Positions 13,301 to 43,054 of a stretch of DNA of 64,000 bases are shown here, piece after piece. Location: assembly GCA_029721355.1 (NCBI GenBank), contig CM056607.1, positions 8,403,309 through 8,467,308 on the forward strand, in the 5' to 3' direction. The notes under the pieces were generated by a model that was not told the DNA's origin, ran no database searches, and was given only the letters and a program-made list of their open reading frames with translations. How positions within the stretch are numbered: the first letter of the stretch is position 1; the number at the start of each line of letters is the position of its first letter. The stretch comes from Tegillarca granosa (Eukaryota). Both the position numbers and the translations under genes were made by a program.

Positions 13301-16300
13301 TTTCATTTGAATTGGCTCATTAGTTTCAGAGAAGAGTAAAGTTTATAGATGCACACATGCATGCGTGCTATTCCATGCTGTAAGCTCACCCTGGCTAAGC
13401 CAGGTAAGCTTAAATCTCAAGTCAAACAGGAAGTCCTAACCTTGACCTCATTTTGATAGACATCTCAATACAACATCAAATCTGAAGACCTCACGTCATT
13501 ATCTTTGATAAATAAGAAAGTGATCCAAGAACCACAAATATTTCTCCTTTTCTCAACAGCTTACCTGTTGATAATAATCACCATAGGAAACATCTTGATC
13601 TCTCTTCCTGAATGTGTGTGTTGGATGTTTCTCCCAATCAATGTCATCAACACGGTATGTTTTGTTGTTATACCTGAAATATCAACAAAACATTAACACA
13701 ATATCTGTAAAGTTCTACAGTCAAGTAAGTAACAAAATTGTACAGAAATATGTTAAAATTGTTACTAAAACAAGGCATCACAAAAACCCTTGTAACAGAG
13801 TATTGTATAATACTGTTTTTTAAAGAATCAGCTATATTTAGCTGCTAATTTGTACATTGTGATAACATGCAAATGAAAAAGTTGACAAAAAATCAGTTAT
13901 ATATATGTTAAATGAAAAGGGATCTATATTGTCAACACCAAATTTCAACAAATAACAAGTATGCAATGTTCATTTTTTCTGTTTTCTTTATCTATAGTAA
14001 CATTCACCATTATAGATTTAGGATCGGGCTAAAACACTAACTCGTCAGAGATATTACCATAATAAACCCAAATATGAGGTTTCATGAAATTCTGTTGAGA
14101 AATAAACTTGTTAGATTGCTGTGCTATATTACCATAATAAATCAATATATACAGTTTCATGAAATTCCATTGAGAGTGGAGTGGAGTTATAGTGTTTTAC
14201 ACCCCAGTCCAGAATCTTTCACTTATTTAGAGGCAGTCAATTGATGGAGGAAACCAGAGTGCCCAGAGAAAACCACCGACCTTTGGCAAGCAAACTGACA
14301 AACTTTCTCACACTAGAGTCTGTCCTGAGTGGGATTCGAACCCAGGCGATGAGAGAAGCTGTGATACGTAAGCATGAGCTTTAGACCACTTGGTTACAAA
14401 GGCCCCAAATTCTTTGAAAAATAAACTTTTTAAAGCACTGACAAAGAAAGTGTAACATTATATTAATATTACATTTCTGATTTGTTGATAGTCTATACTG
14501 TCACCCCGAGAAATTTCTTTGTCAACAAAGGTGGTCTATGAGCATTTTTTTCAAAAATAATATACACAGTATATACAATATTTTCTCCATGGGAAAATGG
14601 TAATAGTTCCCAACTTATCCATGGTTTGAGATAAAAAGATTTTTTGAACAGCATTAAAAATGGGACGGAATGGCATTATTAGAACACTTTCTGAAAATGA
14701 GCAACTATATAACTTCCATCATCTCCGAGGCCTCGGTGGCCGAGTGTTCTAAAGTGTGCCTCTCACCACCTGGGTTCGAATCCCACTTGGGACAGATCCT
14801 AGTGTGAGAAAGTTTGTCATTTTGCTTGCCAAAGGTCAATGGTTTTCTCCAGGCACTCCAGTTTCCTCCACCATCCCAGAACTGACTGCCTCGAAATAAG
14901 TGAAAGATTCTTGACTGGGGCGTAAAACACTATTACTCCACTCCACTATCTCCATTACAGATTTTTTTTTTCAACAGTCTGTCAATTTTCAAAACTTTAC
15001 TATTTTGCTGTCAAACAAATCATTCCACTTTTGTGTCAATTCTGATAAAATATAACACTTTTAAAGCTCCAGAAGCAATATGGTTTAACAAGTCATGTTT
15101 AACTTGGCAGTAATTGAAGCCATGACTTTTTAATCCAAATAATTGTTTTTTTATGCCAGGAACAGGAATTAACAGATTTTGGAATCCATGAAGACAAGTC
15201 TGGATAAAATTACTATAGTTATCATACAAACATGTTGAACTCCAGATTTAAGGAATTATTAAGTTTTCTCAAATAGGTATTGCAGTTTATCAACTTAAGA
15301 TGACCAAGTAAGTTAAAAAATTAACTTTCACTCACAGGACCTTCAAAATCATTTGAGATACTAAGAGTTTACGATAACCATATTATTCAATCTTACATTT
15401 ATCATGGAATATTGGACACCTGTCTGGAATCTACATGTTGTTTAATTCAACCATCTACATGCAAAATATGAGCACTATACTAATTTTATTTCTACGTATT
15501 ACATAACAGAACTGCTGAATGTTACACATTTTTACTAACCTTGTCATCACTATTGAACCAACCAATTTCTTAAACATGTCACTATAAAAATTATCTGTAC
15601 TTCTACTGCTGTTGTAAGCTTCATACATGATTTCGAGAACTGTATCACTGCGCAAGATTTTGTGAGAAATATCTGCACACAACAAGGTTTCAGATTCATA
15701 CTTCATAATGGATGTTATAAACCCTGGCATTACTGTTAACCTGTAGAGAATAGAATGCTTATCACTTAACAAAACCATTAATATACATGTATCTAAATAT
15801 CAAAATTTACTCTTTTAAAAATAAATTGCTAAATATTTTCAATTACAATATGCTGATATCTATACATTAATGTCTTGAGGAATAAATATAACAAGAGTGC
15901 CATGAAGGCCCTTGACGCTCACCTGCAAATGATGTACACTCAGCTTGATTTTGGCAAACTGGAGCTTCTATTCTTAAAAGAGATTTTTTCCTATATTTCG
16001 AGCTAGTGACCTACTTATTGACACAAAATGACCTATATATTAACTTGAGCTAGCTTTTGTCAAGAGCATCATTCTGAGACAGTTTGATAAGATTGGTCCA
16101 AAATGGATCCCCTCATATGTGTTAACAAGGTTTTTATATAATTCGACTTAGTGACCTAATTATTGACCCAACATAGCCCATATACAAACTCGAGCTAGCT
16201 TTTGTCAAGAGCATCATTCTGACTAAGTTTGATGAAGATTGGACTAAAATTGGGGCCCCAGGAGTGTAAGCAAGGTTTTCTTACAATTTGACTTAGTGAC

Positions 16301-19300
16301 CTACTTATTGACCCCACATGACCCATATACGAACTTGAGCTAGCTTTTGTCAAGAGCATCATTCTGACTAAGTTTGATGAAGACTGGACTAAAATTGAGG
16401 CCTCAGGAGTGTTAACAAGGTTTTTTTACAATTTGACCTAGTGACCTACTTATTGACCCAACATGGCCCATATACAATCTTGAGCTAGCTTTTGTCAAGA
16501 GCATCATTCTGACTAAGTTTGATGAAGATTGGACTAAAATTAAGTCCTCAGGAGTGTTAACAAGGTTTCTCTACAATTTGACCTAGTGACCTAGATATTG
16601 ACCCAACATGGCCTATATACGAACTTGAGCTAGCTTTTGTCAAGAAGATCATTCTGACTAAGTTTGATGAAGATTGAACTAAAATTGGATCTTCAGGAGT
16701 GTTAACAAGGTTTTTCTACAATTTGACCTAGTGACCTAGATATTGACCTAACATGGCCCATATACGAACTTGAGCTAGCTTTTGTCAAGAGCATCATTCT
16801 GACTAAGTTTGATGAAGATTGGACTAAATTTGAGTCCTCAGGAGTGTTAACAAGGTTTTTCTACAATTTGACCTAGTGACCTACTTATTGACCCAACATG
16901 GCCCAAATACGAACTTGAACTAGTTTTTGTCAAGAGCATCATTCTGACTAAGTTTGATGAAGATTGGACTAAAATTGGGGCCTCAGGAGTGTTAACAAGG
17001 TTTTTCTACAATTTGACCTAGTGACCTACTTATTGACCCAACATGGCCCATATACGAACTTGAGCTAGTTTTTGTCAAGAGCATCATTCTGACTAAGTTT
17101 GATGAAGATTGGACTAAAATTGGGGCCTCAGGAGTGTTAACAAGGTTTTTCTACAATTTGACCTAGTGACCTAGATATTGACCCAACATGGCCAATATAC
17201 GAACTTGAGCTAGCTTTTGTCAAGATGATCATTCTAAGTTTGATGAAGATTCGTCTGAAATCAGGTCCTCAGGAGTGTTAACAAGGTTTTTCTACAATTT
17301 GACCTAGTGACCTAGATATTGACCCAACATGGCCCATATACGAACTTGAGCTAGCTTTTGTCAAGAGGATCATTCTGAGAAAGTTTGATTAAGATTGCAC
17401 TTAAATTTTGGCCTCAGGAGTGTTAACAATCAAAAGTTGACGCACGACGCACACCGGACAATGACCCACCACAATAGCTCACTTGAGCACTTTGTGCTCA
17501 GGTGAGCTAAAAATAAAAGCCTGTCTCAGTAAAGCATCTGCTAGAGAGAGAAATGTTCCAAGTTCCAATTCCTTGCTTGGTCATATGACTTTAAAATTTG
17601 ATAACTGCTTCCATGCTAGGTGCTCATCTTTATGACAGCATATAGACTGGATCAGCCAGTGCCAAGATCATGGGATTGGAGGAAGTTTTTGCCTTTGGCA
17701 TTCTGAATAGGTGATCTTGAAAAAAATAACCCCAAGTGTGAGCTAGAAGAAGGCAGACCATCATTCACACTTGTACATTTTAACACATGCATAAACTTGT
17801 TCACTGATTCTTAACGATTAAACTTTTCAATAGCCGAAAAATTACTGATGTAATGTTAAAACAACATTACAACCAACAAAATTAAACTTACTTGTGTTGT
17901 GGAATATTTTGTGCTAGTTTTGGGTTAAAATAATTGCGTCCAATCTGCTGCATTTCAATCATGGCTAATACTCTATAAATAAACAAATAAATTATTTTCA
18001 TGAATAAATTATTTTACATTGTCATAAGAGAGAATCAACAAGAAATGATCTATTCTTACAAGTATACAGAAGCTGTCCAGGTAAGCATGGATTAAGCTTC
18101 CAAAAGGTTTGAAATTGCATTTGAGACTGAATGGCAAATGTTTGTTTGTTACAAAAGCTTTCTATTTTCTTGTATTATCACAATATAAATGGTCAAATGG
18201 TTGATAATTTTCACTGCCATTCACAGAAAATACAATTGCCGCAATGGTTAAATACGTATTTCTAACGTAAAATTGCAATTTACAAGTAACATTTTCAGTA
18301 TCTCAGATGACACATGAAAACAAATTCTTATATATTGTTAAAATGAATGAAATACTATCTTATGAACTGAAAGTGGTACCTTCTAAAAATGATGTTATAG
18401 ACCTGAATACACTGTGGTGAGGTAGGTGGAAGCTCATTGGTCAGAGTGATGGTAATCCTTATCTGTTCATTGTCTCTTCTAGCTGTGGAATACACTTCGG
18501 TTACCTATAATATTTGATTCAAAAGTGTACTGAATAAAGATCATTATTTAAAAGGGGATAATTTTTCATTGTTTTCATGGTTAATGTTAGTCTTGCCAAG
18601 GACTTTTTTTTTTTTTTAAATTTTTAACTTTTTACCGCACAAAATTTAATTTCAACATTACATTATATCTGTATATGATAAAACATTTCCATTTATACAT
18701 AAACCATTGAAGTCTCTCAAGAGATAATTAGCTTTTGGTGACAGATTTCACTTCATGACTTTTAACCTTTAACCTACACACCTTAATTTGGTATGCAACA
18801 AATTGTGTAATGTTTGTATATTGTGCCAAGTTTGATGAAAGTTCTTCCAACAGATATTAAGAGCAGACCCAATACTAAGACAGACTAGACAGCAAGTTTC
18901 CTATAAACTCCCCTTAACATTGTTGGGGGATTGGTCTAATTACTGCATCTACTCCTGAATAACAACACATGTACTATCACTTCAAAACCAAAGGATGATC
19001 TCTTAAATTCAAACCATCCATCATAGGCAGACTTATCAAACTTGGGCATATACACTTTTTACATTCAAATACATGTACATCAAAGCAATACTTTATTCAA
19101 ACTGTTAACAACTTAAATAGAATGTATTCATGCTTACATCTTGTTGAAGTCTCCGAGGCAAAAACAACACCATGCCATCAAAAGCACGAGTTGTACCCAA
19201 TAGCTCTTTATGGTCTGCCAGCAGTCCAACTCTCAACTTTCTTGAAATCACTGGTGGATTAAATTCAACATGATACTGGTAAAGATGCCAGTCTGGTGCA

Positions 19301-19428: not shown

Positions 19429-21251
19429 CATTTGTGCTAAGAAATCCAAATAAGGTGACCAAACCTTATTGCTTAAAAATACATTGGTTGAAAATATTTA
19501 TACACAAAATCAACCCTTATATTATAAAAACTTGCAAATGTGAGTGTTTTACTCGCAATGTACAGTCCTGTATGTAAATTTCAAGAATGTTTAGTACCAA
19601 TGTTAACTTTTAAACCTAATTGTCCAATTTGCCAAGCACCACCAGTGATTTTGCTATGGTTTTTAAAAACTACCTTCCACCTTTCAGATTGGGAAAATTT
19701 GGACCCTTTTTATGTCGCATATTACCCTCAGAATTTTGAAATTCATTGCAGATTTTATATTGTGACAATATCTAACATTTTTTGTCTGTCATAACAGTTT
19801 TGGACAACTGGATTTAACTTAAACTATTTGATTGTGTGTCACTGTTGCCTTTGGGGAATTTTAGTTGTCAAATTGGGAAATTTTAGTCTTATTTCTCAAG
19901 GGGAAACTACCTTTATTCAGTAGTAATTTTAGGCAAACAAAACCACTGACCAGAAAGTATTTATTTGTTCCCTTATAATATTACATGTTGATACAGAACT
20001 TTGTGTTAAAATGCTGTTATTTATTTTCTTTTTTAATTTTGTTTTGCTTTGATTTTGTTGTTTCTTTTGGTTTTTTGTTTTTTTTAGTCTCCTAAATCCA
20101 TAGTAAAACTTTCTTTTCCAGGTTGTTACATTTCAAGTAATTGTTTAAGTGGAAATAATTGCTATTAATTTAACGGGTTGGGCAGATACATTTTTTACAT
20201 GCAAAAAGTTATTTTCAGTTTGCATTGTCCTTGACCAGCAAAACTTACTGACTTCAAAAAATGTTACATCTCTTACCCTTTTTGTCCATAATGTGCGCTG
20301 GTCTAGTAGTTAATTCTGTGTACCGGAAATCTGACCGTTTCCTGCCAACATCTCTAGCATCTCCAGTTCCTATCTTCAACTTTTCAATTTCTTCTACAGG
20401 AACTTTAGCATCTCCACTTGCCATTCCTGGCCTTTCTTTAGTTGCCCCTCCTCTATAGCTAGCTCTTCCACTTGCAGCTGGAGGACCAGCAGCTGGTGCT
20501 GGGGCAGGCGAAGCTGCTGATGGTGCCTGTGGGGCCTGATAAAATAATAATTTTTCTTTGGTTTTTTTTTTTAGCAAATCAAAGGGTCTTTTTAAAGAAC
20601 CATTAACATTACCAATAAGTAGGCTTCTCCCCAATTTGTCTGCAAAAATCTGCATAACAAACACTTCAAAATAATATTAGAAATCTCAACTTGGGATTGA
20701 TTTACTTACAATACTGTGCAAGAAATTGTAACCTGGAAGGAAACACTTTTAAACTTTTTCTCTAAAGTTGCATCTCTTATCAAGATTTTTTTTCACAAAT
20801 AATGTCAGTTTTTTGTTTTTTTTTGTTTGTTTGTTTTTTGTTTTTTTTTTGAAAGCGATGAAAAGCTGAGTGCCAAGTGATAATCAGTAACACTGATCTT
20901 CAAATGAACCAAAATACTTTTCTACAGTCATTCCAAATATTGTACTTAGTTTTAACATGGCATTGAGACTAGAACCAATAGCTTACATGTTAACTTTAAA
21001 ATACAAGGACAAACGTTTTCCATTAAAAAATAATCATGAAAAGCTTTTTTATCATCTCCATGTTCAAGTGAAATTAGACATCATAATTAAATTTTTTAAT
21101 ATACACATGGAAAAAAATAAAATACAGACCAAGATAAAACCATATAAATTGATGAATACCACACCTGTTGACTTTCACCAGGTCGTCTTGCCTGGTCATC
21201 CTGCTGACCCCTTGCACGTCCCCTGGCTCGCCCTCTGGCTCTGCCCGACAT
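1242..21251 (-). CDS. piwil1: Piwi-subfamily Argonaute gene (PIWIL1/Piwi1-like). At least 15 coding exons in the window. The 3'-terminal exon(s) encoding the PIWI C-terminus lie beyond the window start.
   Basis: The spliced conceptual product aligns collinearly with remembered human PIWIL1. The N-terminus has RG/RA repeats ([15 protein letters not shown]). Further matches include [56 protein letters not shown] and [11 protein letters not shown]. The PAZ region contains [11 protein letters not shown]...[23 protein letters not shown], and the MID region contains [20 protein letters not shown]. The PIWI region contains [10 protein letters not shown] and [14 protein letters not shown]. Every exon is bounded by AG acceptors and GT donors with mutually consistent phases. 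Confidence 0.85.
1660..1747 (-). mobile_element. Fragment of the tRNA-derived SINE head (same family as 14175-14406).
   Basis: The reverse complement ggggcctcaaaggctgggtggtttttagagtgtgcttacagattacactgcctctcgtcacctaggttctaatc parallels the SINE head ggggcctttgtaaccaagtggtctaaagc...cctgggttcgaatc. Confidence 0.45.
2338..2512 (-). CDS. piwil1: piwi PIWI-domain exon 14b, a tandem paralogue of exon 14a ([58 protein letters not shown]+g). Candidate alternative or mutually exclusive exon.
   Basis: Acceptor is ttttaacag|CTTAAA and the donor is a consensus CGAG|GTAAGT. Length (175 nt) and phases are identical to exon 14a. The C-terminal half of the encoded segment is more diverged from PIWIL1. Confidence 0.65.
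4176..4350 (-). CDS. piwil1: piwi PIWI-domain exon 14a ([58 protein letters not shown]+g). It carries the first catalytic Asp.
   Basis: Acceptor is tcatcacag|CTAAAG and the donor is a weak AAAG|GTTTGG. It matches PIWIL1 LKLVMIVGIDCYHD...[20 protein letters not shown] closely. It is 175 nt long, entering in phase 0 and leaving in phase 1, which fits the next exon at 1398. Confidence 0.8.
5958..6082 (-). CDS. piwil1: piwi coding exon 13 ([42 protein letters not shown]).
   Basis: Acceptor is cctttcag|TTCCAAG and donor is ATTCCG|GTTAGT. It matches PIWIL1 [42 protein letters not shown]. Confidence 0.8.
6225..7842. repeat. 36-bp tandem satellite, about 45 copies (unit approximately agtaaaatattgaacagctactttactatatattag), in piwi intron 12.
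   Basis: The period between successive gaacagctac motifs is a constant 36 bp (6242, 6278, 6314 and onwards). The six-frame ORF 7248-7910 is an artefact of this array. Confidence 0.95.
8193..8344 (-). CDS. piwil1: piwi coding exon 12, MID domain ([51 protein letters not shown]+g).
   Basis: Acceptor is ttcttttgtag|AATACA and donor is CATCCAG|GTAGGA. It matches PIWIL1 [28 protein letters not shown]. Confidence 0.85.
8893..9077 (-). CDS. piwil1: piwi coding exon 11 ([61 protein letters not shown]+cc).
   Basis: Acceptor is ctcttttag|TTGGGC and donor is GCTCC|GTAAGT. It matches PIWIL1 [53 protein letters not shown]. Confidence 0.8.
9530..9644 (-). CDS. piwil1: piwi coding exon 10 ([39 protein letters not shown]).
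   Basis: Acceptor is ttatttcag|AAATCA and donor is TGTGAG|GTAGGA. It matches PIWIL1 [40 protein letters not shown]. Confidence 0.75.
10290..10407 (-). CDS. piwil1: piwi coding exon 9 ([39 protein letters not shown]+ac).
   Basis: Acceptor is cttcttcag|GCCTTT and donor is AATAC|GTAAGT. It matches PIWIL1 [41 protein letters not shown]. Confidence 0.8.
10561..11354. mobile_element. Non-autonomous TIR element (MITE-like) in a piwi intron.
   Basis: Terminal inverted repeats are aggcacccggggacggca at 10561 and tgccttccccgggtacct at 11337 (about 15 of 17 bases match). Internal CTATGGGTGG-type direct repeats occur at 10657, 10709, 11280 and 11313. Confidence 0.45.
11579..11705 (-). CDS. piwil1: piwi coding exon 8 ([42 protein letters not shown]+g).
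   Basis: Acceptor is ttcag|GCTTAT and donor is ACTG|GTAAGG. It matches PIWIL1 [23 protein letters not shown]...AMLIPELCYLTGL. Confidence 0.8.
12135..13030. mobile_element. Foldback/TIR element with GGTCTGATAT subterminal repeats in a piwi intron.
   Basis: There is a 35-bp perfect hairpin: catggcaaaatccatatcatatgccatatcagacc (12135-12169) against ggtctgatatggcatatgatatagattttgccatg (12204-12237). A perfect palindrome ccggtctgatatcgatatcagaccgg lies at 12945-12970. A diverged right-arm copy ggttggtgatatggatcacatgattttagctg lies at 13000-13031. Confidence 0.4.
13565..13673 (-). CDS. piwil1: piwi coding exon 7, PAZ ([37 protein letters not shown]).
   Basis: Acceptor is atttcag|GTATAAC and donor is CAACAG|GTAAGC. 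It matches PIWIL1 [39 protein letters not shown]. Confidence 0.85.
14175..14406 (-). mobile_element. tRNA-derived SINE copy A (head at 14406, body with a CORE/MIR-like central domain).
   Basis: The reverse-complement head ggggcctttgtaaccaagtggtctaaagctcatgcttacg...cgcctgggttcgaatcccactcaggacag carries D-arm-like and B-box (GGTTCGAATCC) motifs. The body tgtcagtttgcttgccaaaggtcgg...ggtttcctcc...aaataagtgaaagattct is about 90% identical to copy B. Confidence 0.7.
14727..14953 (+). mobile_element. tRNA-derived SINE copy B, inverted relative to copy A.
   Basis: The head gaggcctcggtggccgagtgttctaaagtgtgcctctcaccacctgggttcgaatcccacttgggacag is followed by the same body as copy A. The tail is ...tattactccactccactatctcc. 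Confidence 0.7.
15540..15740 (-). CDS. piwil1: piwi coding exon 6, N-terminal part of PAZ ([45 protein letters not shown]...[11 protein letters not shown]+ag).
   Basis: Acceptor is ctctacag|GTTAAC and donor is ACAAG|GTTAGT. It matches PIWIL1 [38 protein letters not shown]...ELIGLVVLT. Confidence 0.85.
15990..17428. repeat. 145-bp tandem satellite, about 10 copies, in piwi intron 5.
   Basis: The period between tattgaccca motifs is 145 bp (16161, 16306, 16451, 16596 and onwards). The unit is approximately ttgacccaacatggcccatatacgaacttgagctagcttttgtcaagagcatcattctgactaagtttgatgaagattggactaaaattggggcctcaggagtgttaacaaggtttttctacaatttgacctagtgacctact. Confidence 0.95.
17429..17520 (+). other. Conserved hairpin-containing tail following the 145-bp satellite (agctcacttgagc-actttgt-gctcaggtgagct then A-rich). 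It may be the terminus of a non-autonomous Helitron/Helentron-like carrier.
   Basis: A 12/13 inverted repeat spans 17476-17508. The same tail motif recurs in the same orientation at 860-895. Confidence 0.3.
17892..17972 (-). CDS. piwil1: piwi coding exon 5 ([27 protein letters not shown]+aa).
   Basis: Acceptor is ttatag|AGTATT and donor is CACAA|GTAAGT. It matches PIWIL1 [27 protein letters not shown]. Confidence 0.8.
18380..18504 (-). CDS. piwil1: piwi coding exon 4 ([41 protein letters not shown]+ag).
   Basis: Acceptor is ttatag|GTAACC and donor is AGAAG|GTACCA. It matches PIWIL1 [42 protein letters not shown]. Confidence 0.85.
19138..19352 (-). CDS. piwil1: piwi coding exon 3 ([72 protein letters not shown]).
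   Basis: Acceptor is ttttcag|GAACTT and donor is CAAGAT|GTAAGC. There is a near-colinear match to PIWIL1 SSGIIVRLSTNHF...WALYQYHIDYNP...AFDGTILFLPKRLQQ. Confidence 0.85.
19385..19424. repeat. (GA)n microsatellite.
   Basis: Direct reading of the sequence. Confidence 0.95.
20277..20535 (-). CDS. piwil1: piwi coding exon 2 ([19 protein letters not shown]...[23 protein letters not shown]+g). Phase 0 in, phase 1 out.
   Basis: Acceptor is ttattttatcag|GCCCCA and donor is AAAAAGG|GTAAGA. It is in frame with exon 1. The ..RRDFHDLGVNTRQN.. region resembles PIWIL1. Confidence 0.7.
21165..21251 (-). CDS. piwil1: piwi coding exon 1 (start codon at 21251-21249). Encodes [29 protein letters not shown]. 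Donor is CAG|GTGTGG.
   Basis: The ATG is followed by an Arg-Gly/Arg-Ala repeat typical of Piwi N-termini. An AG acceptor (ttatcaacag) lies 22 nt upstream of the ATG, suggesting a separate 5'UTR exon. The donor is moderately weak, so the exon end is less certain. Confidence 0.65.
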
Positions 21252-21688
21252 TTTTATTTAAGCTTATTCTAATCTGTTGATAACAAAATAAGAATTCATC
21301 AGAAAATTTTTTTTGGTACACACACTGCTTCAAATGGGTATGACTACTTTCATTTTCTATGTGAATCAATTTGTTTTCACAGAAACAACCTATTTGTCTT
21401 TCAGTACATTTTAAAATTTTAGTGGATATAACCTTCACACTCCAACAAAATTGCATTTTTGTCTACAAACATTACTCTGAATTCAAATTTTGTTTTGCTG
21501 ATATACATGACTAGATCATTAAATGGTTTTCTATTATTTTGTCTTGTGCTAAATAAGTCATCATTGTTTTTGTCAAATTCACAATTTGCTCATCAGTTAC
21601 TTAAGCTAATCAGTTAAAATCAAGCGAGTTTAAATCAATAATTTATGTGCATATCGCATGAGGATGTACAGGGTGTGCTTAAGAAAAC

Positions 21689-21702
21689 CAGGGTTCACAC
21701 TG
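21689..21702 (+). repeat. hAT left TIR.
   Basis: CAGGGTTCACACTG. Confidence 0.75.
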
Positions 21703-22211
21703 CTGTTCGCTTTTTCGCAAAATGCGAAAAAAAATTAAATTTGGCGAATAAATATGCTATTTGGCGATAAAACATTTTCAGAAATTTTGAGTGACAACGA
21801 TGGTCTTCCCGACATTTTCTGCAGTAGGTACAAAGATCCGAAAAATTAGAGTTCCGAATGGAAGTTTACAAATGCAGTCAACCATTGCGGAAGCCATACT
21901 GACAGCCACGTGTACACAATAATTGTGTTAAAACAGTATATTACCGACTTCTTAAGAAAATCCAATTAAAATGATTACCGATAAATAGTAATCAACCAAT
22001 TATCAGGATGGTGATTACAGAGATGGTGTACCGTCGCTTTGTGTAGTCCAAGCCCATTGACACGTGCCGAGATGTGGTGTAATTACAGGTGAGTCGGCAT
22101 TCGTTTGAATTAAACATAAAAACAATGTTTAAGCAAAACATACTTTAATATACCGACAGTACTAGCATATAAAACGATGTTCATTTACAGATCAGATCAG
22201 TACACCTCAAA

Positions 22212-22476
22212 ATGGTGAAGCGTAAACTTTCGGACAACATGAACATGGGCAATTTGGCCAAAGCCCCCAAGTTGTCGTCATTTGGCTGTAATACACCCAC
22301 CAAAACTAAAGAAAGTGGGGAAGATTTTAAAGTTTCTAAAACTCCCAAAATTGAGATTAGATCATTTAAAGAGACATGGAAATTCAATCGTCCATGGTTA
22401 CGATATGATGCTAAATCCAAATCTATGTTTTGTGATATCTGCATAAATGCACAAGTTTGCAACACATTTACAGTGG
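22212..22476 (+). CDS. hAT transposase 5' coding exon (TTF/ZMYM-type zinc finger: FKETWKFNRPWLRYDAKSKSMFCDICINAQVCNTFT). The 3' splice junction is unresolved.
   Basis: The W..W.RPWL.Y..(n)C..C pattern matches the TTF-type zinc finger of ZMYM1-like hAT transposases. The end of the exon is uncertain because no good phase-1 donor is seen. Confidence 0.45.
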
Positions 22477-22966
22477 TCGCGCTGTCGGTCGCCAACGTCG
22501 CAAATTGCGATTTTTTATGATTTTTGGCGATAAAAATCGGCGCCTGGCGATTTTTTTGGCGATTACAAAAATTATCCCACAGTGGTCCCCAAATAAAAGA
22601 GTCTTATCGGCACGTGTCGAAAAAATACAGTGTATACAGACGACAGGTATTAACAAAGGATTTACTTGGAAGCCATGTAGAAAGATGTGTTAAAGATGGC
22701 AATTAAAGTGATTAGGTAGTATGAAAGAGTTAATTATACTTTTAATTTGTTACTGTTATTAATTAGTTTACGACCTAGTTAGTGGTCGTGTGTCTTTAAT
22801 GTTCTCTTGTGTATCCAAGCGCACTGTATATAAAGAATCTGTGAACTATGTCGGCAAAATTTTCGAAAAATAAACATTGTAAAAATCACAAAGATCCGAC
22901 AACACTTAAAATGGACAGCAAAATGACGAGTTTTTACATACTTAAAAAAATCTTTCACCCGTTATC

Positions 22967-23087
22967 ATGGGTAAACGTAAATTGGACTTTACCGCAACCC
23001 AACAATCTAAAATTGCAAAATTATTGTCCTTTGGTTTTGGTTCTGATAGCAATGTTATTGAAAATGTGCAGATGCAACAAACACCAG

Positions 23088-23148
<61 letters not shown>

Positions 23149-23345
23149 CGGATAAGTTGTTCATACTTCTAAAACGCCTTAGTACACGTAAATTTATGGA
23201 CACTTGGAAATTTGGATGTTCATGGCTTAGGTACGATCACAAAACAAAACTTATGTACTGTGATATTTGTATTACAGCTCAAGTCTGCAACTCGTTTACA
23301 ACTGGATGTGATGTCTTGAAAAAGGAAAGCGTTATAAATTTTTCT
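22967..23345 (+). pseudogene. Internally duplicated second copy of the hAT 5' exon (MGKRKLDF... then FMDTWKFGCSWLRYDHKTKLMYCDICITAQVCNSFTTGCDVLKKES). It is split and frameshifted by a poly(A)-rich tract.
   Basis: It is a paralogue of 22212-22476. A run of about 58 bp of (A)n/(AAAG) at 23094-23152 separates the two halves in different frames. A degenerate TIR-like motif cagtggtcgcgctgtcggtcgc at 22477, plus GGCGATAAAA repeats, precedes it. Confidence 0.4.
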
Positions 23346-23815
23346 TCTTAATAACCAGACCGATTAAAATAACGTATGCAAATTTTATTCATGATCGTGA
23401 GGTCAGATCCGGGTCAGAGTGAAGGACTAACTAAATGAATGTGGGTCAAGGGCAATTGTTGCAGCAAATCACGATTTATTTTTTAAATATAAATGGTAAA
23501 AAATTTCACTAATGCCATCTTTTACGTATTTGGTGTTAATATTGATTTTTTTGTTGTATGTAAGGTTAAACTAGCAGTCAATCAGAACTGTCGTATCATG
23601 ATGTAATATTGGATCTAAATATAGAAAAATGCGTTACTGTATTTTTAACTTCATTTGGCGATTCAAATATCATTGTTATTATTATTTAGATTATTTTCGG
23701 AAAGTCAGCGTAAATAAATCTGATAATTCAGAATATTTTAGTGCTTTCCATTTTAATTTCACACATGATTAATATTTTCAGGTGACAATAGTCATAGTTT
23801 TGCCGTTAACGTTTC

Positions 23816-23817
<2 letters not shown>

Positions 23818-23870
<53 letters not shown>
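23818..23870. repeat. Poly(A) tract of about 52 nt inside the hAT element.
   Basis: Direct reading of the sequence. Confidence 0.9.
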
Positions 23871-23873
<3 letters not shown>

Positions 23874-24362
23874 AGACTTTTAAATGATAAATAATTCGTG
23901 ATTTAAATTTAAACGGGGAGCATTGGAAGCCTGTGCATGCATCTGTTTTTGCATTTTTCCTGAAAGATTGATGGGGGTTGTTTAAAATTTCAGTGCATGC
24001 ATTTTATTCTGTCAGGTAGTGATAAATAAACAAATAAATACAAATTAAATTGCGTTTTTATTCTTCATTTTACAAACAAGTTGCAATTAAAATGCTAAAT
24101 AGAATCTGGTACTGAACAGATGCCGATGGTGAATCATTTTATCTTCTGGCTCCAGTTTCCAAAAACTGGCGACAAAAATCCACAACTGGCGATTTTTTTT
24201 GGAACCTGTTTTTTAGGAGCCAGAGCAACCCCTGATTTACCATCGGTTGCACAATTTTGAAAAAAGAATCAGTTGTGAAACATACAGAAGGCAAAGGTAA
24301 TTAATTATATATATTAAACTTTGTATTGGATAATTAAAATTTATTCCTTCTCAGAATTAATT

Positions 24363-24418
24363 TAATGATAAGCTGTGTGTGTGTGTATGTGTGTGTGTTA
24401 GAGAGAGAGAGAGAGAGA
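24363..24418. repeat. Compound (GT)n(GA)n microsatellite inside a hAT intron.
   Basis: Direct reading of the sequence. Confidence 0.9.
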
Positions 24419-24597
24419 TTAAATTATTTATCCACAAAAATCTATATTATGAAATGAGTGTAGCAAGTATAATGCAAGATTGATTATAAATAGGGATCAT
24501 TTATATATATACTAGAACTGTGCATGTAAAACAAGAATTCTTTGAAAAATAGCAGTTTATTTCAATATATTGTTTCATTTCATTTTTTCTATTTCAG

Positions 24598-24785
24598 GTC
24601 TTAATAGCCATGCCCTTGCACTTGAGATTTCCAAACAAACTAATTGTATGGGTGCTGCCCGTGAAGTAGCCTTGTCCAAAAACAAACATGCCATAGTTTC
24701 TGCCTTACGCAATGTTTACTTTGCAGCTGTTAATGACTTATCAAACAGTACTGTTTCAAAACTTCATGAATTATGCATAGAACAG
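24598..24785 (+). CDS. hAT transposase internal exon (GLNSHALALEISKQTNCMGAAREVALSKNKHAIVSALRNVYFAAVNDLSNSTVSKLHELCIEQ).
   Basis: Acceptor is tttctatttcag|GTCTTA and donor is GAACAG|GTAAAG. It joins the next exon in phase 0. Confidence 0.6.
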
Positions 24786-24987
24786 GTAAAGAATATTTCT
24801 CTTTAAATAATTTAAAGACATCACCTTCTTATCATCTTTCAGAACATTATTTGAATTAAACAAGAATTTTCAGTGAAATTTTTGTTAATCGTTAACAATA
24901 CACCTCATTCAAAAGTATTTCACTTATTACATGTACTAAGTACTATAGTATTGTCATTATTAAACATGAACCTCTTATTCATTCCAG

Positions 24988-26568
24988 GGTGCCACACAAC
25001 TTAAAGACCTGGCAGTTGATGATCATACCTCTTATGCACATAATCAGAGTATTCAGGAGTTTCAGGCAGCTATAAGTAAGGTATTAGAGGATAAGTTGTT
25101 GGCTAAGGTTGAGGCTAGTAAGGAGTTCAGTATAATGATAGATGAGTCAACTGATGTATCAGTTCATCAGAATTTGTTGGTATATATCAGGATAGTTGAG
25201 GAAATAGGTGCTAGGTGGGAACCCAGGTCATACTTTTTAGGTGTCAGGCAGTTAGCTAGTGCTACTGCAGATAGTATTACTAGGGAAGTGTTAGATGTTC
25301 TCACTAGTAATGGTTTAGATGTAGGTGATATGGTAGGGATATCCACTGATGGAGCAGCAGTGATGGTAGGGTCAAAGTCAGGTGTTGTGACTAGACTGAG
25401 AGATTCTTCCCCCAGTTTGCTTGCTACACATTGTATTGCCCACAGGTTAGCTTTAGGTTGTGGTTCTGGTGCTGATAAAGTTCCATATCTGGTAAAGTTT
25501 CAGGAAATTTTGAATTCTATTTACAAGTATTTTAGTTTTTCTCCAAAACATATGGCAGCTCTTGAGAGTATTCAGGAAGTTATTGAAGGTGTTGAAAAGA
25601 GTAGGTTCAAACAAGTGTTTACTACAAGGTGGCTTAGTTTTGAGGGTAGTGTCCATGCTGTAGTAAGGAATTATTCATCACTGATTTCTGTGTTTCTTGA
25701 GGAGAATTCAGCTAAGGCTTTAAGCTTGTACAAGCCAGTGTCTACATACAAGTTTTTGTTCTGTGCACACTTTCTGTCAGATGTTTTGAAACAGTTGTGT
25801 TTTCTGAGTAAGATGTATCAGAAGTCTGATTTAGATTTTTCACAGGTGAACCCACTGTTAAGTTCCACTATTGTAGTTTTGGAGAATCTTAGGGACTCTA
25901 AGTGCAGTAGTGTTTTGGCTGAATTTCTTAGTGTTGTTCCATCTGAGCCAATGTTAGACAGTGACGGTTTATACACTTTTCAGTTTAAAGGTCACACAAT
26001 TAGAGATAGTGCCCAACAGAGAAAGGAGACTGTGTCTTCATGCGAGGCTTTTGTAGATCATACAGTGTCAAATCTTAAGGAAAGGTTCAGTGATGGTAAG
26101 GATGCTAAGATCATGTCAGCTATGTGTGCAGTTTTGAACCCTAGTTTAGATGGCCAGTTGAGTAGTGATGATGTTAAGACAGTTGGTGACTATTTGAGTA
26201 GTTGTGGTATTAAGGATTCAGCATGTTTTGCTCAGGAGTTATCTAGTTTTAATGGTTATGTCAAAGTTCAAGTTAATAAGAATAGTGAAAGTGTAAATTC
26301 TGTGAAGGATGTGGCACAGTTGGGCTTGAAATTGCTAGATATTTTTCCTGTGGTAGGGATTATGTGCAAGAGGTTTCTGACACTGCCAGTTTCTACAGTG
26401 GATTGTGAAAGAGGATTTTCAAGACAGAATCTGATTAAAACCTGTCAGAGAAACAGATTGAAAGAAAAGACTTTAGATAATTTATTTAGAATTTCAATGG
26501 ATGGCCAAAGAGAAAATATTGACTTTGATAATGTGTTTAAAGTTTGGGCAGGAGTAAAACCAAGATGA
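24988..26568 (+). CDS. hAT transposase main 3' exon (DESTD / DUF4371-like region plus hAT C-terminal dimerisation domain). Stop codon at 26566-26568.
   Basis: Acceptor is cattccag|GGTGCC. The open frame continues from 24988 through the annotated ORF 25096-26568. Motifs include IMIDESTDVSVHQNLLVYIRIVEE, ATHCIAHRLALG and the C-terminal FLTLPVSTVDCERGFSRQNLIKTCQRNRLKEKTLDNLFRI (hATC). Confidence 0.8.
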   Translation, partial: GATQLKDLAVDDHTSYAHNQSIQEFQAAISKVLEDKLLAKVEASKEFSIMIDESTDVSVHQNLLVYIRIVEEIGARWEPRSYFLGVRQLASATADSITREVLDVLTSNGLDVGDMVGISTDGAAVMVGSKSGVVTRLRDSSPSLLATHCIAHRLALGCGSGADKVPYLVKFQEILNSIYKYFSFSPKHMAALESIQEVIEGVEKSRFKQVFTTRWLSFEGSVHAVVRNYSSLISVFLEENSAKALSLYKPVSTYKFLFCAHFLSDVLKQLCFLSKMYQKSDLDFSQVNPLLSSTIVVLENLRDSKCSSVLAEFLSVVPSEPMLDSDGLYTFQFKGHTIRDSAQQRKETVSSCEAFVDHTVSNLKERFSDGKDAKIMSAMCAVLNPSLDGQLSSDDVKTVGDYLSSCGIKDSACFAQELSSFNGYVKVQVNKNSESVNSVKDVAQLGLKLLDIFPVVGIMCKRFLTLPVSTVDCERGFSRQNLIKTCQRNRLKEKTLDNLFRISMDGQRENIDFDNVFKVWAGVKPR

Positions 26569-27034
26569 ATTTTAAATTAATGAGATTAACTTTAATTGAT
26601 AAATAAAAGTAAATATTAAAATAGAGATTATAGAAGCGGCAAAAGATGACTTTAGTGCTTTGTAAATAGAGACAGAATGTATATATGTTTAAGTTATTAT
26701 ATGTGCGATTCAGGTCCTAGTGCTTTGTATTTTTAGTATTAAATAAATTTTTTATTTTAAAAAAACAGCATGATTTTTTTTATTATCATAATATTCACTG
26801 GTCATTTACATAGACTTCTATATATATATATCTTAATTCTGCAAATGATCATGATTATATACAAGTAACTATCATGGCCAAAAAGCTCATATGTCATGGG
26901 AAATTTTTTTTCTTCAAACTCCTCGCAAGTATTCACTATCGAAATTTGGAGATTTGCTTGGCCCAAAACAATTTGATTTGGCGAAAAAAAAAAAAAGAAT
27001 CTGGCGAAAATTTTGCAGAAAAGAAATTTGAAGC

Positions 27035-27048
27035 CAGTGTGAACCCTG
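27035..27048 (-). repeat. hAT right TIR.
   Basis: Reverse complement is CAGGGTTCACACTG. Confidence 0.75.
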
Positions 27049-29738
27049 AAAACACTTCCTACATTACAAAATGTCTAGTATATGTTTTTCCACATACAAA
27101 AGTTTTAATATGTTTATAACAATTAAACACTTCTTCAGCCTCTTCATTTAAAGCAGCTTAAATGGTAATGGCCTTATTTGGCCTCAAAACACAAACATTA
27201 TTCACCAATGCACAGCACTGTACCTCAAAGTGTGCAGGACTAATAGAATCTATCATATGCATCAGTGGTAGATAGAGGTATCCCACCCGAGTGGGCAGAT
27301 TTTGTGTCTGGAACGAGGCTATGCCGAGGCTACCACTGACACATGATTGATTCTTTTTCTCCCATCCCCGGCATTAACAATTTCTGGCTAATTTAACCCA
27401 AAACACGAATGGCTGATAGAAATTCCTATCTCTTAAATAACTGTCTAAATCAGAAAAAGAATACCACCATTAAAAAGACCGACTTCGAATCTTAGCATAC
27501 CGCAAAAAAAAACAAAAAAAAACAGGAATTCTTACATAATCACTTTAAAAAGGGAAAAAAACAATTGTGAAATCTACATGTAATGATCAGCTGTCGGGGA
27601 GTATTTTTAGAAAAAGTATTACTCACAGCTTGACCTATATAAGATATAGCTATACTTAAAAGTACATCTTATTCCACAAGTAGTATGTAGTGCATAAATG
27701 ACATGAAAATTAGCTTGGCTGCCACATGAAAACAGGAAAAATTATAACAGAAAAACATTTTAATAATATTATTGAAATAAATTGTGATTAAACTTGCTCC
27801 TGTCAGTGGAGGAAGTTACGAGAAGTTAAAAAAGTAATTCCGGCAGCACGAAGAGTGAGGATAAACAGCACGAGGAGGTGAAGTTAGAAATTTCTATTTT
27901 TTACCACCTTTTCTTCCATTGGAAATTATTATCTCAAACTTAGGGGGATGGGAGAAAATTATTTCTATGGCAATGAAAGTGATGTTTCCTGTAATAAAGA
28001 TGGTTTATGGAATATTTTTTTTTAATTAAAACATCATCCATTTCATTTTACTCAACTCAAAGAAGTATTAGTCATATGGTGGGCTGGGTTTTTACTGAAA
28101 ACATTAAATTGTTTTTGCTGTAGATAGTTCATAGATTTCACTCGAGAGGGAAATAAAAAAGATGTGATGTTGATATTGACTTGAATTGATATGAAATCTG
28201 AATGTTTAGACTACCAAGATGAACTTGTAAATTTTGATAAACTGCTCACGTTTACAAGAGACTAATAATTATTTATCAGTGATTTTATTTGAAGAGATAA
28301 AGTAATGTAAAGTAGACTACTATCTCACAGTGTATTACAGTAACTAACAATTAAAAAAAAAACACATAAATTTGGGTTTATTTTTTTGGTCTGACAATTT
28401 TTTTAGTTTTGTCAGACCAAATGTCAGACGGCAATGTCAGACACCTTTTTAACTTTCGGAAAGTCTGGACATCATAATATTAAGTCATCTTACATTGGTT
28501 TCACTCACTATTTCCGAAAAAAAAATAGAATTTACTCAATTTTAAATTTCCAATTCACAGTTACATTATTCATTTTCATTACATATAACTTGCAGTGTCA
28601 GGTAATAACCTTATAACAAGGATATCCTCATAAAAATTTCAAATGTGTCACACTCTTCCCTGTACCACTTACACCAAGATATCCAATTTTAGAACTCCTT
28701 CGATATACGTTAAAATAAATTTATAGTAAACAATCGGTTAAAAAGTCGATCGCGTACTATGACAACACAAGGAAAAACCCATGATCTATTTACCGAAAAT
28801 GTCCAACTTCTGTTATGAAACATGACACCGTCAGCTTTATTATTACACCTAAATTTTACAATGTTCAAAAATCCAATAGTCAAAAATTAAGATTGAACTT
28901 AGAATCGGATAAATAACAAATACACTTCTGTCACTAAAGCAATGTTATTTCTATTGGATAATCCATTGACAGTGACCTAGAAAGACTTGGGATTTTTTAA
29001 AAATCAACACAGAGCATTTTAGACGAAGCCCTCGTAGGTTAAAAAATTATGTCTTCCATTTAAATATAAAATGCATTTAAACTTAAAATTTTTAGGTTTA
29101 ATTTATAATGCATGAGAAATTGTCGTTATTTTTGGAACTTTAATATGCCACGCGGTTCGATATGTTCAATATGGTGTCCGTTGCTAGAGCAGAAGTTTCG
29201 ACACAGCTTGTGAAATTTCGCCTTTTTACAACTTTAAAAGATACATAAGAAACGTTTTGATGATATAAGAAATCGATTTATAATTATACATATTAATCGA
29301 ATAAAATTTCTTCAATAATTGGCGAAAATAATGTACAACAGTTGAATTTATCTAGTACCTTTTTTCTCAGATTCTTTCTCTCTACGCCATTACTTTCTGT
29401 GAAAGTCACGTGACCTGAAAATCGCGCCAAATACTACTACCTGTAGTTTCTACTTATTAAAGAGCACTTTACGAGTCTCAGATATACTGGTATATATAAA
29501 ATATATAAAAAATTACTAGTATGGTTTATTTTATCGGGTGAATTTTCCATTTGTCTACTCGAGGTCAATCGAATCAAGTCCCATGAGAGAGTGGCATAGC
29601 AAACTTCGGAATTTATGTCATATTTTTATTTCTTTTTTCCCCTATGCAAAAATTTTTGGGGAAATATGTCAGGGGTACTTAGCATGGACTCGGAGCTCCT
29701 TCTAAACTTAAATCCTGACATTGATTTATCGATATTAT

Positions 29739-31063
29739 TGTGGTAGCGTGATTTTAAGTATTTTATGTTTTATAATTGCATGCATATGCACGTCACTATC
29801 TTTAGATTTTAGATTTTAGTTTTCCTTTCTGGAGCCTCTACTTTACCATACTTATATCTATTATACTTACCTTATGCGCAGCGACATCTATAACTGTCAA
29901 TTCGTAGGATTTCATTGGTTGGGATATACCTGGTTTATATCATATTTAGATTGATATATATATATAAAGGTTGATTGGATGCCATCTTGTTTTGGACAGT
30001 GTTGAAGAAATTGTTAGAAATATCTCTAGTGTTTTGAATAAGGTCGTCTTTTTGAAAAGTAAGTACAGTTGTCAGTTTTGTCAAACTAAGCTTTTATTGC
30101 TCATGCCTGTTTATAAAGGTATTTCTCACATACTTACCCTTTCTTCCGTCATGTATCCAAACACTACATATAATATCCTTTCAAAATATCCATCTGTCAT
30201 AAACACTTTTATATTTATAAAACCTTACTTCTTTTTTAAAATGTGTAATCCAATAGTTCAATAATATAAACACCGTGCCGGTGATTGAACATTCACTGTG
30301 CAGGTAAAGGTCAAAATGCGTGTATATAGTGTATAAATAGAACTGTTGTGTTACACGGTGTTATACACTAATACTGTGAAGTATATATATATCGTATACC
30401 TAAAAAGCGTTTATGTTGTTATTGTGTTTTATATAGTTTTATTTGTATTGGTTGTAGATGTTCTGTAACATATTGTTAACACAAGTGGTATAAACAAGAA
30501 CCATCTAAGCAGGACTCTGTTCCACAAACAGGTATACATGCAATTTGATTGTTTTAATAATTTATTTGTGTTTGTTTAGAAAATGTCGGTTTTAGTTCTA
30601 GATACATTGGTATGAGTGCATAAAGGATGTTATCAAGGATTATGTCCCTTGACTAACCTGAATATTATTCGGCATAAGTATACATGCCAAATGTAGTTTG
30701 ATACATATATAAATCAGTAGTTGATAAATGTGAATACGATAACGGTTAAAATTGAATGATTTGATTTAATCTAAAATTACTACAAAGAACTGTAATTCAG
30801 TACTTTGTTGAATTGTATTAAACACCAAGTTATTTCCAGAACTTGCACTCAAAGATATTTGTATTATTTTAACCGAGAATATTTTATTGTATAGCTTCTT
30901 ACAATTGTTATATTGTTTCTTTGATAGGGTTGTGATTAGAATAGAACTAAATAGAATCGAATTGAGTTGAATTGACTGAATTGTATCGGAGATGTGAATT
31001 GAAATAAACAGAACCCTAGAGTAAATCGTGTGGTTATTTGTTGTGTACAGTAACCCTATTACA
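29739..31063 (+). repeat. 5' LTR (1325 bp).
   Basis: Identical to 37315-38639. Termini are TG...CA. Confidence 0.95.
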
Positions 31064-31066
31064 AAA

Positions 31067-31084
31067 TGGCGCCCAACGTGGGGC
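31067..31084 (+). other. Primer-binding site TGGCGCCCAACGTGGGGC, complementary to the 3' end of tRNA-Lys(CTT).
   Basis: Its complement GCCCCACGTTGGGCGCCA equals the conserved 3' end (...GAGCCCCACGTTGGGCGCCA) of metazoan tRNA-Lys-CTT. Confidence 0.8.
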
Positions 31085-31554
31085 AAAATTACAGATGGTT
31101 CAGCTTAACAACACAGATATCATAACATTTTCAAGACAGTTAGAACTTAGATTTCACTAGACAACATACGGCAGATTACAACATGGGTTCCGCGACTTCG
31201 TGACTTTTGAATTTGAGCTCTCTTAAATTTTGTATAATTATGAAATAAAGTGCACACTGAAATTGACTGTGAATAAACTTACCTGCAGGTTATATGGTGA
31301 TGTAGAATATAAGAGGTATTGAACTCACTGGTTAGTATTACGATGTATGTTTAGATAATTTTGTTTGAAGTTTATTTTGTTTTTTTTTTCTTGGTTAATT
31401 TTCATTTATTTATTTATTTTATTTTACATTTTAATTTTAAATCTATTTTTGCTTATTTTATTTTATTTTATTTTTCTTAGTAATTATTTAATCCAACATT
31501 ATTAATTCATCAAATTTATCCTTTTGTTTTCTTTTTGTTCTCAATTCTTTATAA

Positions 31555-31555
<1 letters not shown>

Positions 31556-31590
<35 letters not shown>
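31556..31590. repeat. (TA)n microsatellite in the retrotransposon leader.
   Basis: Direct reading of the sequence. Confidence 0.9.
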
Positions 31591-31593
<3 letters not shown>

Positions 31594-32571
31594 TCCTTTT
31601 TCATTTTGTTTTACATTTATTTTTGTTTGAAAAAGAATTTTTGAGGGTAACATACAGGTGCATGGTTAACCAACGTCTAACACATTGTTATTTGTGAATC
31701 AAATTGTGTAATTTAATTTTGGTTATCACAAGTGTTACAATTTTGGTACAGTATTATCAAGTGCGTGTGTAATGTATGTTTGTACGCACTACGGGTAAAG
31801 TGTAATTAAGTTTTAATTAAGATGTAATTAAGATCCTAGTGACAAGTGTAAAAGTGCACATCCAAAAAAAATCTACCCCTAACAGGTTGGCTTATACATA
31901 TACACATATTTATTATTACATTCCCTTCTCTTATACAATTGAACAACTATCGTTCTCGCCATACACATTTAAGGTGCTGAAAATTGTGGTTGTTACTTTG
32001 GTGTTGTTGAAGTGCATTTCCAGATATTATTGTTGTTATCTTAAGGGTATAATACTTTTACTTTCTGCATTGCTTCTTACCTTGTCTCTATGCTTAATAG
32101 GCTTCTTTTATCTTTATATCTGTACTGTTCTATCTTTTGCTTTTATTAACACCTTTAGCACTATACTTTCATTATATTGTTAGGTCCATGTTTAACTGGG
32201 GTATATTTTGATAGTACTCACATTGTACCCTAGCATATGTTTTATTTCAGAGTAGATGTAGTTCTACACCATATTATGGCACCATCTCCAGCTTACTTAA
32301 AGGTAAGTGAATAGTAACTAAGTTCAGTTCTAAACAGTTTTAAGAAGTAAAACTAAGAGGTACATATCAGGTAAGTATCTGTATATACTGAGGTTTAAAG
32401 GTAAGTAATCAGTAATAATAGCCATATAACTTTACAAAAGTAGGTATCAACAGTATAGAGATTTAAAAGCGATGTGATACATATAAATGTATACATATAG
32501 TGCTCATTTCAATAAGCAATCGGAGTAGGAGTCACAATTAATTCAGTTTTGTATTAACGCCAATAACAATA

Positions 32572-37275: not shown

Positions 37276-37301
37276 GTGAATGACGAGGACGTCATTTTCG
37301 C

Positions 37302-37314
37302 AGGAGGGGAAGAA
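37302..37314 (+). other. Polypurine tract AGGAGGGGAAGAA immediately 5' of the 3' LTR.
   Basis: Direct reading of the sequence. Confidence 0.8.
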
Positions 37315-41383: not shown

Positions 41384-41987
41384 AGAAAATGCTGTGACAT
41401 TTATTATTTATTTCAGTTATTCATTTAAAAATTAATAATATCATCCTGTAACATGGTTCTTCCCTATTTTATTATGAAATGTTACCATCTAAAGGAATTT
41501 CATTATTTGACTGAAGTAGTTTTTGATTTATTTTAAAGTTAAGTTATTTTATTTTTAAATTATTTTTTTTAAATGTAGAAATGACAAACATAGAAAATAT
41601 TTTTATTTTAATTTCAGAAAAAATGGAAAACAATCGGACTTAGAAAACATCTTAAATGAGTTAATAGTACTTTTGTTTGAAATCATAATCAGAGAAATTC
41701 ACTTCAAACATTATTGAAGGAAATAAGAAGAAATCAGCATAAAATAGATACTTAACAGTCGCGTATAGATAAGATTTAAATTGGTATGTCCAACTTTATT
41801 TTAAATAGACTTCTATGAAATGCAAACAAATTGATTTAATAATGGCAACCTCACTGGTCAGTCTTTATTTATTCTGGTCAAAGCTACTACAGAATAATTA
41901 ATAATAATCAAGTTCGATGTAGATAACGTGAATGTAATTTTGTTAAATTTGTCGTGAAATATTTTCTCTTTAATCACATGTTTCGAT

Positions 41988-42776: not shown

Positions 42777-43054
42777 TCGCGAATTTTCGAAACAAATTGT
42801 AATTACTAACTTGTTATTCCGTTGTTGTTTATTATTGGGGTGTTTTATATATATGTTCTATGTTGTGAAATAATAAAGGCTTTCTTGACAGCATCTGACT
42901 AGATGTGTTCTTGTCATTTTTAGAAAATGGTAACGAGGTGTTAAGAGTTAAACCACAATAACGCATAACCAAAAGTCCAACTATGAAATAAATTTTAAAC
43001 CACCCAAACTACATAATAACAACAAAACTAAACAAGTTAAAAAAAACTAAATGG

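Follow-up and report, generated by a model that had tools for sequence, protein, structure and literature searches.

Relation to described hAT systems

The source cited for the hAT5 group of DNA transposons is reportedly Kapitonov & Jurka 2007 (Repbase Reports). In two reports, the names hAT5 and hAT6 already stand for hAT families with 5-bp and 6-bp target site duplications (TSDs), respectively, and hAT5 is reported from invertebrates, within an animal hAT lineage (PMC12730594, PMC9004415). Here we analyze positions 21689–27048 of a 64-kb stretch of Tegillarca granosa contig CM056607.1 (the window), an interval that lies upstream of the piwi-like 1 gene (piwi1) and that an earlier note had described as an apparently autonomous hAT transposon. 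Our preferred reading, to which we assign a probability of roughly 0.85, is that two class II elements from one bivalve hAT clade together form the interval (the composite reading): a defective, hAT5-like host element and a non-autonomous element that inserted into it later.

The elements in the window share with hAT5 the hAT-type transposase domains, short CAG-initiated terminal inverted repeats (TIRs) and 5-bp TSDs, the last being shared by the two window insertions and the relatives from Mya and Mercenaria. The clade departs from hAT5 in its single copies from Ostrea and Mytilus, whose termini are homologous but whose TSDs measure 6 bp and 8 bp, respectively. The host element is hAT5-like by its TSD, TIRs and domains, an assignment made on these features rather than by phylogeny against hAT5 reference transposases. 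A second likeness, by domains and not by phylogeny, is to the Buster/ZBED5-FAM200-related hATs and the vertebrate domesticates ZNF862, KIAA1586 and C17orf113 (PF27073, PF25431 and PF14291), which have the same domain set: a C17orf113-type zinc finger, a DUF4371/FAM200-ZBED5 RNase-H-like core and a hAT dimerisation domain. The vertebrate domesticates differ in being immobile single-copy host genes that lack TIRs, whereas the window element has TIRs, subterminal repeats and TSDs. The arrangement also recalls Ac/Ds, in that an internally deleted derivative keeps its ends and a remnant of the 5′ part of the gene, needs transposase in trans and forms an element within an element. Unlike the situation in Ac/Ds, the nested element did not arise from its own host by deletion but belongs to a sister lineage.

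The host element and its transposase gene

The 14-bp sequence CAGGGTTCACACTG is present exactly twice in the window, at 21689–21702 (plus strand) and 27035–27048 (minus strand), and the two copies form a perfect inverted match; by chance, about 0.21 matches with two or fewer mismatches would be expected. These TIRs start with the 5′-YARNG typical of hAT elements and have homologous counterparts in four related elements; at the left end, the TIR can be aligned with that of the nested element and with those of the elements from Mya, Mytilus and Ostrea. Immediately inside the TIRs are subterminal repeats, presumed to be transposase-binding sites. The left repeat region (21703–21775, plus strand) contains TCGC, TGCGA and two TGGCGA motifs (21742 and 21762), and the right region (26969–27034, plus strand), delimited by motif search and right-end alignment, has TGGCGA at 26979 and 27002. 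More than half of the TGGCGA/TCGCCA motifs in the window (11 of 21) fall within this 5.36-kb interval. In the left ends of five elements (host, nested, Ostrea, Mya and Mytilus), representing four bivalve orders, the TCGC, TGCGA and TGGCGA blocks are held at fixed spacing, with a mean column identity of 74%. The perfect 14-bp TIRs and subterminal repeats reported in the earlier note are thus both present.

That note had also expected an 8-bp TSD, which is wrong for this lineage. The junctions read ...TTAAGAAAAC/CAGGG on the left and CCCTG/AAAACACTTC on the right, and copies of AAAAC directly abut the left TIR (21684–21688) and the right TIR (27049–27053). No 8-bp duplication is found at the host flanks, where a comparison of AAGAAAAC with AAAACACT gives a duplicated stretch of exactly 5 bp. 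Because hAT5 elements have 5-bp TSDs, the missing 8-bp TSD is not evidence against transposition; instead, it classifies the element. We also considered an 8-bp TSD shortened by a 3-bp deletion at the right junction and rejected it, since the identical deletion would have to have occurred independently at two insertions; a later deletion is likewise excluded by the 5-bp model for the nested insertion, which repairs exon 1 exactly in frame (see below). The empty target site without the host element would read ...TGTGCTTAAGAAAACACTTCCTACA.... With the nested insert removed, the host element measures 3,591 bp (21689–22470 plus 24240–27048), compared with 3,352–3,950 bp for relatives in Mya, Mytilus and Mercenaria. 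A BLAST of the element against the 64-kb window returned no further copies of it, only low-complexity matches.

The transposase gene lies on the plus strand and has three coding exons. A putative intron in the 5′ untranslated region (UTR) can be read at 22089–22190 (CAG/GTGAGT ... TTTACAG/AT). The first part of exon 1 (22212–22470) extends from the ATG to ...MFCDICINAQVCNTFT and includes the CxxC half of a zinc finger; from ATG 22212 the frame reads ...FKETWKFNRPWLRYDAKSKSMFCDICINAQVCNTFT as far as 22470. This assignment draws on the open reading frame (ORF) and its translation, on tblastn matches to relatives and on a Pfam match to zf-C17orf113 in the protein obtained when exon 1 is repaired (33 bits against a cut-off of 29.5). 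The remainder of exon 1, placed by sequence and translation, occupies 24240–24296 (..IGCTILKKESVVKHTEGK, followed by the donor GTAATT), and exon 2, placed by reading frame and splice sites, occupies 24598–24785. Exon 3 (24988–26568) encodes the catalytic core and, at about 26341–26487, the hAT dimerisation domain. It is open, as the earlier note had claimed, and Dimer_Tnp_hAT (PF05699) scores above its cut-off (29.9–30.1 bits against 21.4; E = 4–5e-7; residues 620–668 of the repaired protein), and its length is 526 codons plus a stop.

The hAT motifs DESTD, STDGA, HCIAH (CxxH), RW and CERGFS are all found in exon 3, where they align with those of homologues. A hAT DDE RNase-H-like core is also indicated by homologues at 45–97% identity, which carry PF14291 and PF27073; a sequence search of the PDB with the transposase gave no significant match. 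Joining repaired exon 1 to exons 2 and 3 yields a protein of 694 amino acids, which can be aligned over its whole length with complete homologues (725–814 amino acids) from Mytilus and Nymphon. The exon 2–3 junction is contiguous in contig L001, at 76–81% nucleotide identity. This contig was considered as a spliced transcript and rejected: its sequence is genomic and comes from a diverged relative (77% amino acid identity), with intron 1 kept and intron 2 missing, and its support is for the predicted reading frame and not for splicing.

Exon 3 is extremely poor in CpG, with two CpG dinucleotides in 1,581 bp (observed/expected 0.04). The corresponding ratio is 0.56 for the window, 1.2 for the 5′ end of the element and 1.18 for the nested element. 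Transposase ORFs of relatives are also depleted (0.13–0.44); a candidate cause is that the coding sequence is methylated in the germline.

A nested element in the first coding exon

The segment at 22471–24234 (plus strand) is a hAT element in its own right. Its 1,764 bp are bounded by TIRs (CAGTGGTCGCGCTG on the left; CAGGGGTTGCTCTG on the right, in reverse complement), with TGGCGA repeats at both ends. The left end starts at 22471 with CAGTGGTCGCGCTGTCGGTCGCC, followed by three spaced TGGCGA motifs, and the right end runs through two TGGCGA motifs to GCCAGAGCAACCCCTG at 24234, beyond which the sequence continues with ATTTACCATCGGTTGCACAATTTTGAAAAAAGAA. A 5-bp TSD, ATTTA, is present on both sides (22466–22470 and 24235–24239). 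Excision of 22471–24234 together with one copy of ATTTA restores the in-frame sequence ...AAC ACA TTT ACC ATC GGT TGC ACA..., which is translated as NTFTIGCTILKKESVVKHTEGK and ends at the GTAATT donor. An intact-finger product from this locus would read ...CDICINAQVCNTFTIGCTILKKESVVKH....

Both ends of the nested element resemble those of an element in Ostrea edulis (L004), with identities of 81.5% over 92 bp and 78.7% over 89 bp and the same asymmetry between left and right TIRs. The stretches compared are non-coding (22471–22562 and 24146–24234 in the window; 3989–4080 and 8223–8310 in L004), and a terminal identity of about 80% between clam and oyster elements would imply either that the ends are under strong constraint or that an element was transferred horizontally. 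The nested element also holds a diverged and truncated N-terminal zinc-finger exon at about 22967–23340 (MGKRKLDF...WKFGCSWLRYDHKTKLMYCDICITAQVCNSFTTGCDVLKKESV, then a stop), about 49% identical to the Ostrea element in amino acids. From the similarity of the ends and the truncated exon, we infer that this insertion is non-autonomous and descends by internal deletion from an element of a sister lineage.

Two poly(A) runs occur in the nested element, at 23090–23133 (44 nt) and 23817–23872 (56 nt); the first sits in the remnant coding exon, where it is translated as a run of lysines. A 12-mer in the right part of the element, CCGATGGTGAAT (24123–24134), matches at 11 of 12 positions an inverted copy of host exon sequence just outside the right end, ATTTACCATCGG (24235–24246). 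The GGTG portion of this repeat is also found in the Ostrea element, and the match may be coincidental. The inverted repeat raised the possibility that 24123–24246 is a separate miniature inverted-repeat transposable element, which we rejected on finding that the right end of the nested element matches the Ostrea right end base for base.

The insertion breaks exon 1 between 22470 and 22471, leaving the CxxC pair on one side and the KH...H half of the zinc finger on the other. By tblastn, one exon encodes the zinc finger without a break in the elements of Ostrea edulis, Mya arenaria (L005) and Mytilus edulis (L003). Reading on through the insert reaches an in-frame TGA at 24233–24235, and there is no AG between this TGA and the GGT at 24245–24247, where the conserved GC residues resume, so splicing cannot rescue exon 1. 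An exhaustive test of GT–AG pairs found none that restores the finger, since all 16 open-frame combinations that skip the insert delete the finger as well. The products still open are at most a 102-amino-acid N-terminal fragment (ORF 22212–22520) and a finger-less protein, such as the 572-amino-acid frame that starts at M24648. The window thus lacks an uninterrupted full-length transposase gene that includes the zinc finger, and this host copy is predicted to be defective and non-autonomous because the nested element interrupts its first exon. The earlier note had itself said that an interruption of the transposase ORF, should careful splicing analysis reveal one, would undo its proposal of apparent autonomy, and that proposal falls here.

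The proposed history begins with a hAT5-like element that had 14-bp TIRs and a three-exon transposase gene encoding a C17orf113/BED-like zinc finger, a DDE RNase-H-like core and a dimerisation domain. It would have inserted by cut and paste, with a 5-bp staggered cut at AAAAC, in the orientation opposite to that of piwi1. Later, the internally deleted sister-lineage element, most similar to that of Ostrea edulis, would have entered the first coding exon with its ATTTA duplication and halved the finger. By analogy with established hAT biology, subterminal repeats of the TGGCGA type would be bound by the N-terminal zinc finger of the transposase, and oligomerisation would depend on the C-terminal hAT domain. 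The DDE core would cleave at the CAG...CTG ends, and integration would follow with target cuts staggered by 5 bp. If the finger does bind these repeats, a copy in which it is split would no longer make a working transposase. Because both of its ends are intact, the copy could still be mobilised in trans by an intact member of the family.

The subfamily has other copies, for which the earlier note had suggested a search. The best database match to the transposase is the T. granosa protein KUTeg_018771, at 97% identity. It represents a different copy, since it has substitutions in the exon 2 part and its gene model leaves out the dimerisation region. The database also yields eight more T. granosa proteins, at 39–68% identity, giving nine matches in this species. 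Four ORFs of the window, looked up by exact sequence, had no identical entry in the protein collection. The subfamily is young enough to have copies that are 97% identical, and the nested insertion places activity of a related lineage later than the insertion of the host element.

Relatives in other bivalves provide TSDs from a single copy per lineage. The duplications are AAGGT (5 bp) in Mya arenaria, where the TIR is CAGGGTTCCCGCTGG, CATCT (5 bp) in Mercenaria mercenaria (L007), AGATAC (6 bp) in Ostrea edulis and CTTTGTTT (8 bp) in Mytilus edulis. TIRs were not found for a second Mercenaria copy (L006) or for L009, and L008 begins exactly at its own TIR, leaving no left flank from which to read a TSD.

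Several points weigh against the composite reading. It is built on one copy of each element in one haplotype. The 5-bp family rests on four insertions, and TSD length varies in the wider clade, as the 6-bp Ostrea and 8-bp Mytilus examples illustrate. DUF4371 scores below its Pfam cut-off in the window protein (18.4 against 32.1 bits). Finally, the frame for a finger-less transposase starting at M24648 is open, and its product may be active.

The piwi1 neighbourhood and competing readings

The neighbouring gene, on the minus strand, is piwi1. Its ATG exon (21172–21251, followed by the donor GTGTGG) was placed by its ORF, and the encoded N-terminus matches Saccostrea Piwi1. Minus-strand exons downstream include a Piwi_N match (E = 3.6e-14) and Piwi domain matches on five exons, and the concatenated exons are 59–63% identical to bivalve piwi-like protein 1 over 97–100% of the query. 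The gene has the features of a Piwi1 orthologue: RG repeats at the N-terminus, Piwi_N and PIWI domains in the exons, and best matches among Piwi-like 1 proteins. A search with the N-terminal 229 amino acids gave short fragments only, and with the longer query used in its place no arcid Piwi1 was found in the protein collection. A piwi1 fragment from a related species (L002) covers three internal exons and not the promoter.

Two tandem versions of one PIWI-domain exon are present in piwi1, at 4153–4452 (...KVCMK) and 2213–2515 (...IKLR), both on the minus strand. They match one to one the sole region that differs between isoforms X1 and X2 of Saccostrea echinata piwi-like 1, which points to a mutually exclusive exon pair conserved between arcid clams and oysters.

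Measured from the piwi1 ATG at 21251, the left TIR of the host element (21689) is 438 bp away and the right TIR (27048) is 5,797 bp away, and the two genes are divergent. These distances, the orientation and the identity of the neighbour are as the earlier note had given them. On the minus strand, a splice-acceptor-like site is found at about 21272/21273, 21 nt upstream of the ATG (ttcttattttgttatcaacag/ATTAGAATAAGCTTAAATAAAAATG, the exon side starting with ATT). This site suggests an upstream non-coding piwi1 exon, in which case the ATG exon may not be the first, and the element could then sit in a 5′UTR intron of piwi1 instead of its promoter.

The region upstream of piwi1 contains many other repeats. 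A Ty3/gypsy-type long terminal repeat (LTR) retrotransposon (29739–38639), about 8.5 kb upstream of the piwi1 ATG, has 1,325-bp LTRs (29739–31063 and 37315–38639) that are 100% identical and an intact ORF (32572–37275) encoding a 1,567-amino-acid Gag-Pol with protease, reverse transcriptase, RNase H and integrase; it is probably younger than the hAT and more likely to be active. Domain matches also identify a non-LTR reverse transcriptase fragment of 430 amino acids (43055–44347, plus strand) and a PIF/Harbinger-type DDE_Tnp_4 ORF of 706 amino acids (59564–61744, minus strand). Tandem-repeat arrays are found at 6078–7700 (36-bp period) and 15974–17429 (145 bp), both inside piwi1 introns, and at 41854–42903 (75 bp) and 50373–51595 (66/22 bp).

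Might the defective insertion have been co-opted, either as a promoter or enhancer of piwi1 or as an antisense insertion in its 5′UTR intron that feeds production of hAT-derived PIWI-interacting RNAs (piRNAs)? The 438-bp spacing and the antisense orientation would suit such a role, and the acceptor-like site fits a 5′UTR intron that contains the element. We consider co-option very improbable: the whole 43 kb upstream is rich in transposable elements, including the LTR element with identical LTRs, so that proximity of a hAT to piwi1 is expected by chance in this genome. The placement that the earlier note had singled out is thus real, in that a genuine hAT adjoins piwi1, but less remarkable than it appeared. 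Any effect of the hAT on piwi1 is hypothetical. A more specific proposal, that an antisense defective hAT in the 5′UTR intron or core promoter acts as a piRNA-generating trap for a still-mobile family or as a feedback of transposon silencing on piwi1, is in our judgment very improbable.

It is also conceivable that the element is autonomous and currently active and that 22471–24234 is merely an intron of its transposase gene. The perfect TIRs, the open 526-codon exon with its conserved catalytic and dimerisation motifs and the 97%-identical T. granosa protein would all be expected under such a scenario. An intron would not, however, be expected to have its own TIRs, subterminal repeats and 5-bp TSD together with a second, diverged zinc-finger exon, nor to fall within an exon that is uninterrupted in relatives. 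The in-frame TGA with no acceptor after it and the loss of the finger in every open GT–AG combination leave this scenario with a very small probability, lower than that of the piRNA trap. Least credible of all is a domesticated hAT-derived host gene of the ZNF862, KIAA1586 or C17orf113 type: homologues are named ‘zinc finger protein 862-like’ or ‘E3 SUMO-protein ligase KIAA1586-like’ and the ORF is well conserved and strongly CpG-depleted, but such names are automatic transfers from the vertebrate domesticates, the gene is disrupted in the window, TIRs and TSDs are intact around it here and in Mya, Mercenaria, Ostrea and Mytilus, and the many diverged copies per genome (nine T. granosa proteins among the matches) are at odds with the loss of TIRs and TSDs and the single-copy syntenic orthology that mark a domesticated gene.

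Under the composite reading, the interval should be masked in annotation as two nested hAT5-like elements, and the names ‘ZNF862-like’ and ‘KIAA1586-like’ on bivalve genes of this kind denote transposases of mobile elements. The region upstream of piwi1 in this clam is dense in transposable elements, and the insertion would gain greater weight if it were polymorphic and altered piwi1 expression or yielded piRNAs. A weaker but better-supported proposal than the piRNA trap is that one bivalve hAT clade, whose termini can be aligned and whose transposases are 45–55% identical, has TSDs of 5, 6 and 8 bp in different lineages and would form a natural series. Conserved subterminal architecture combined with variable TSD length across bivalve orders would make this clade useful for studying how hAT transposases recognize their ends and set the stagger of the target cut.

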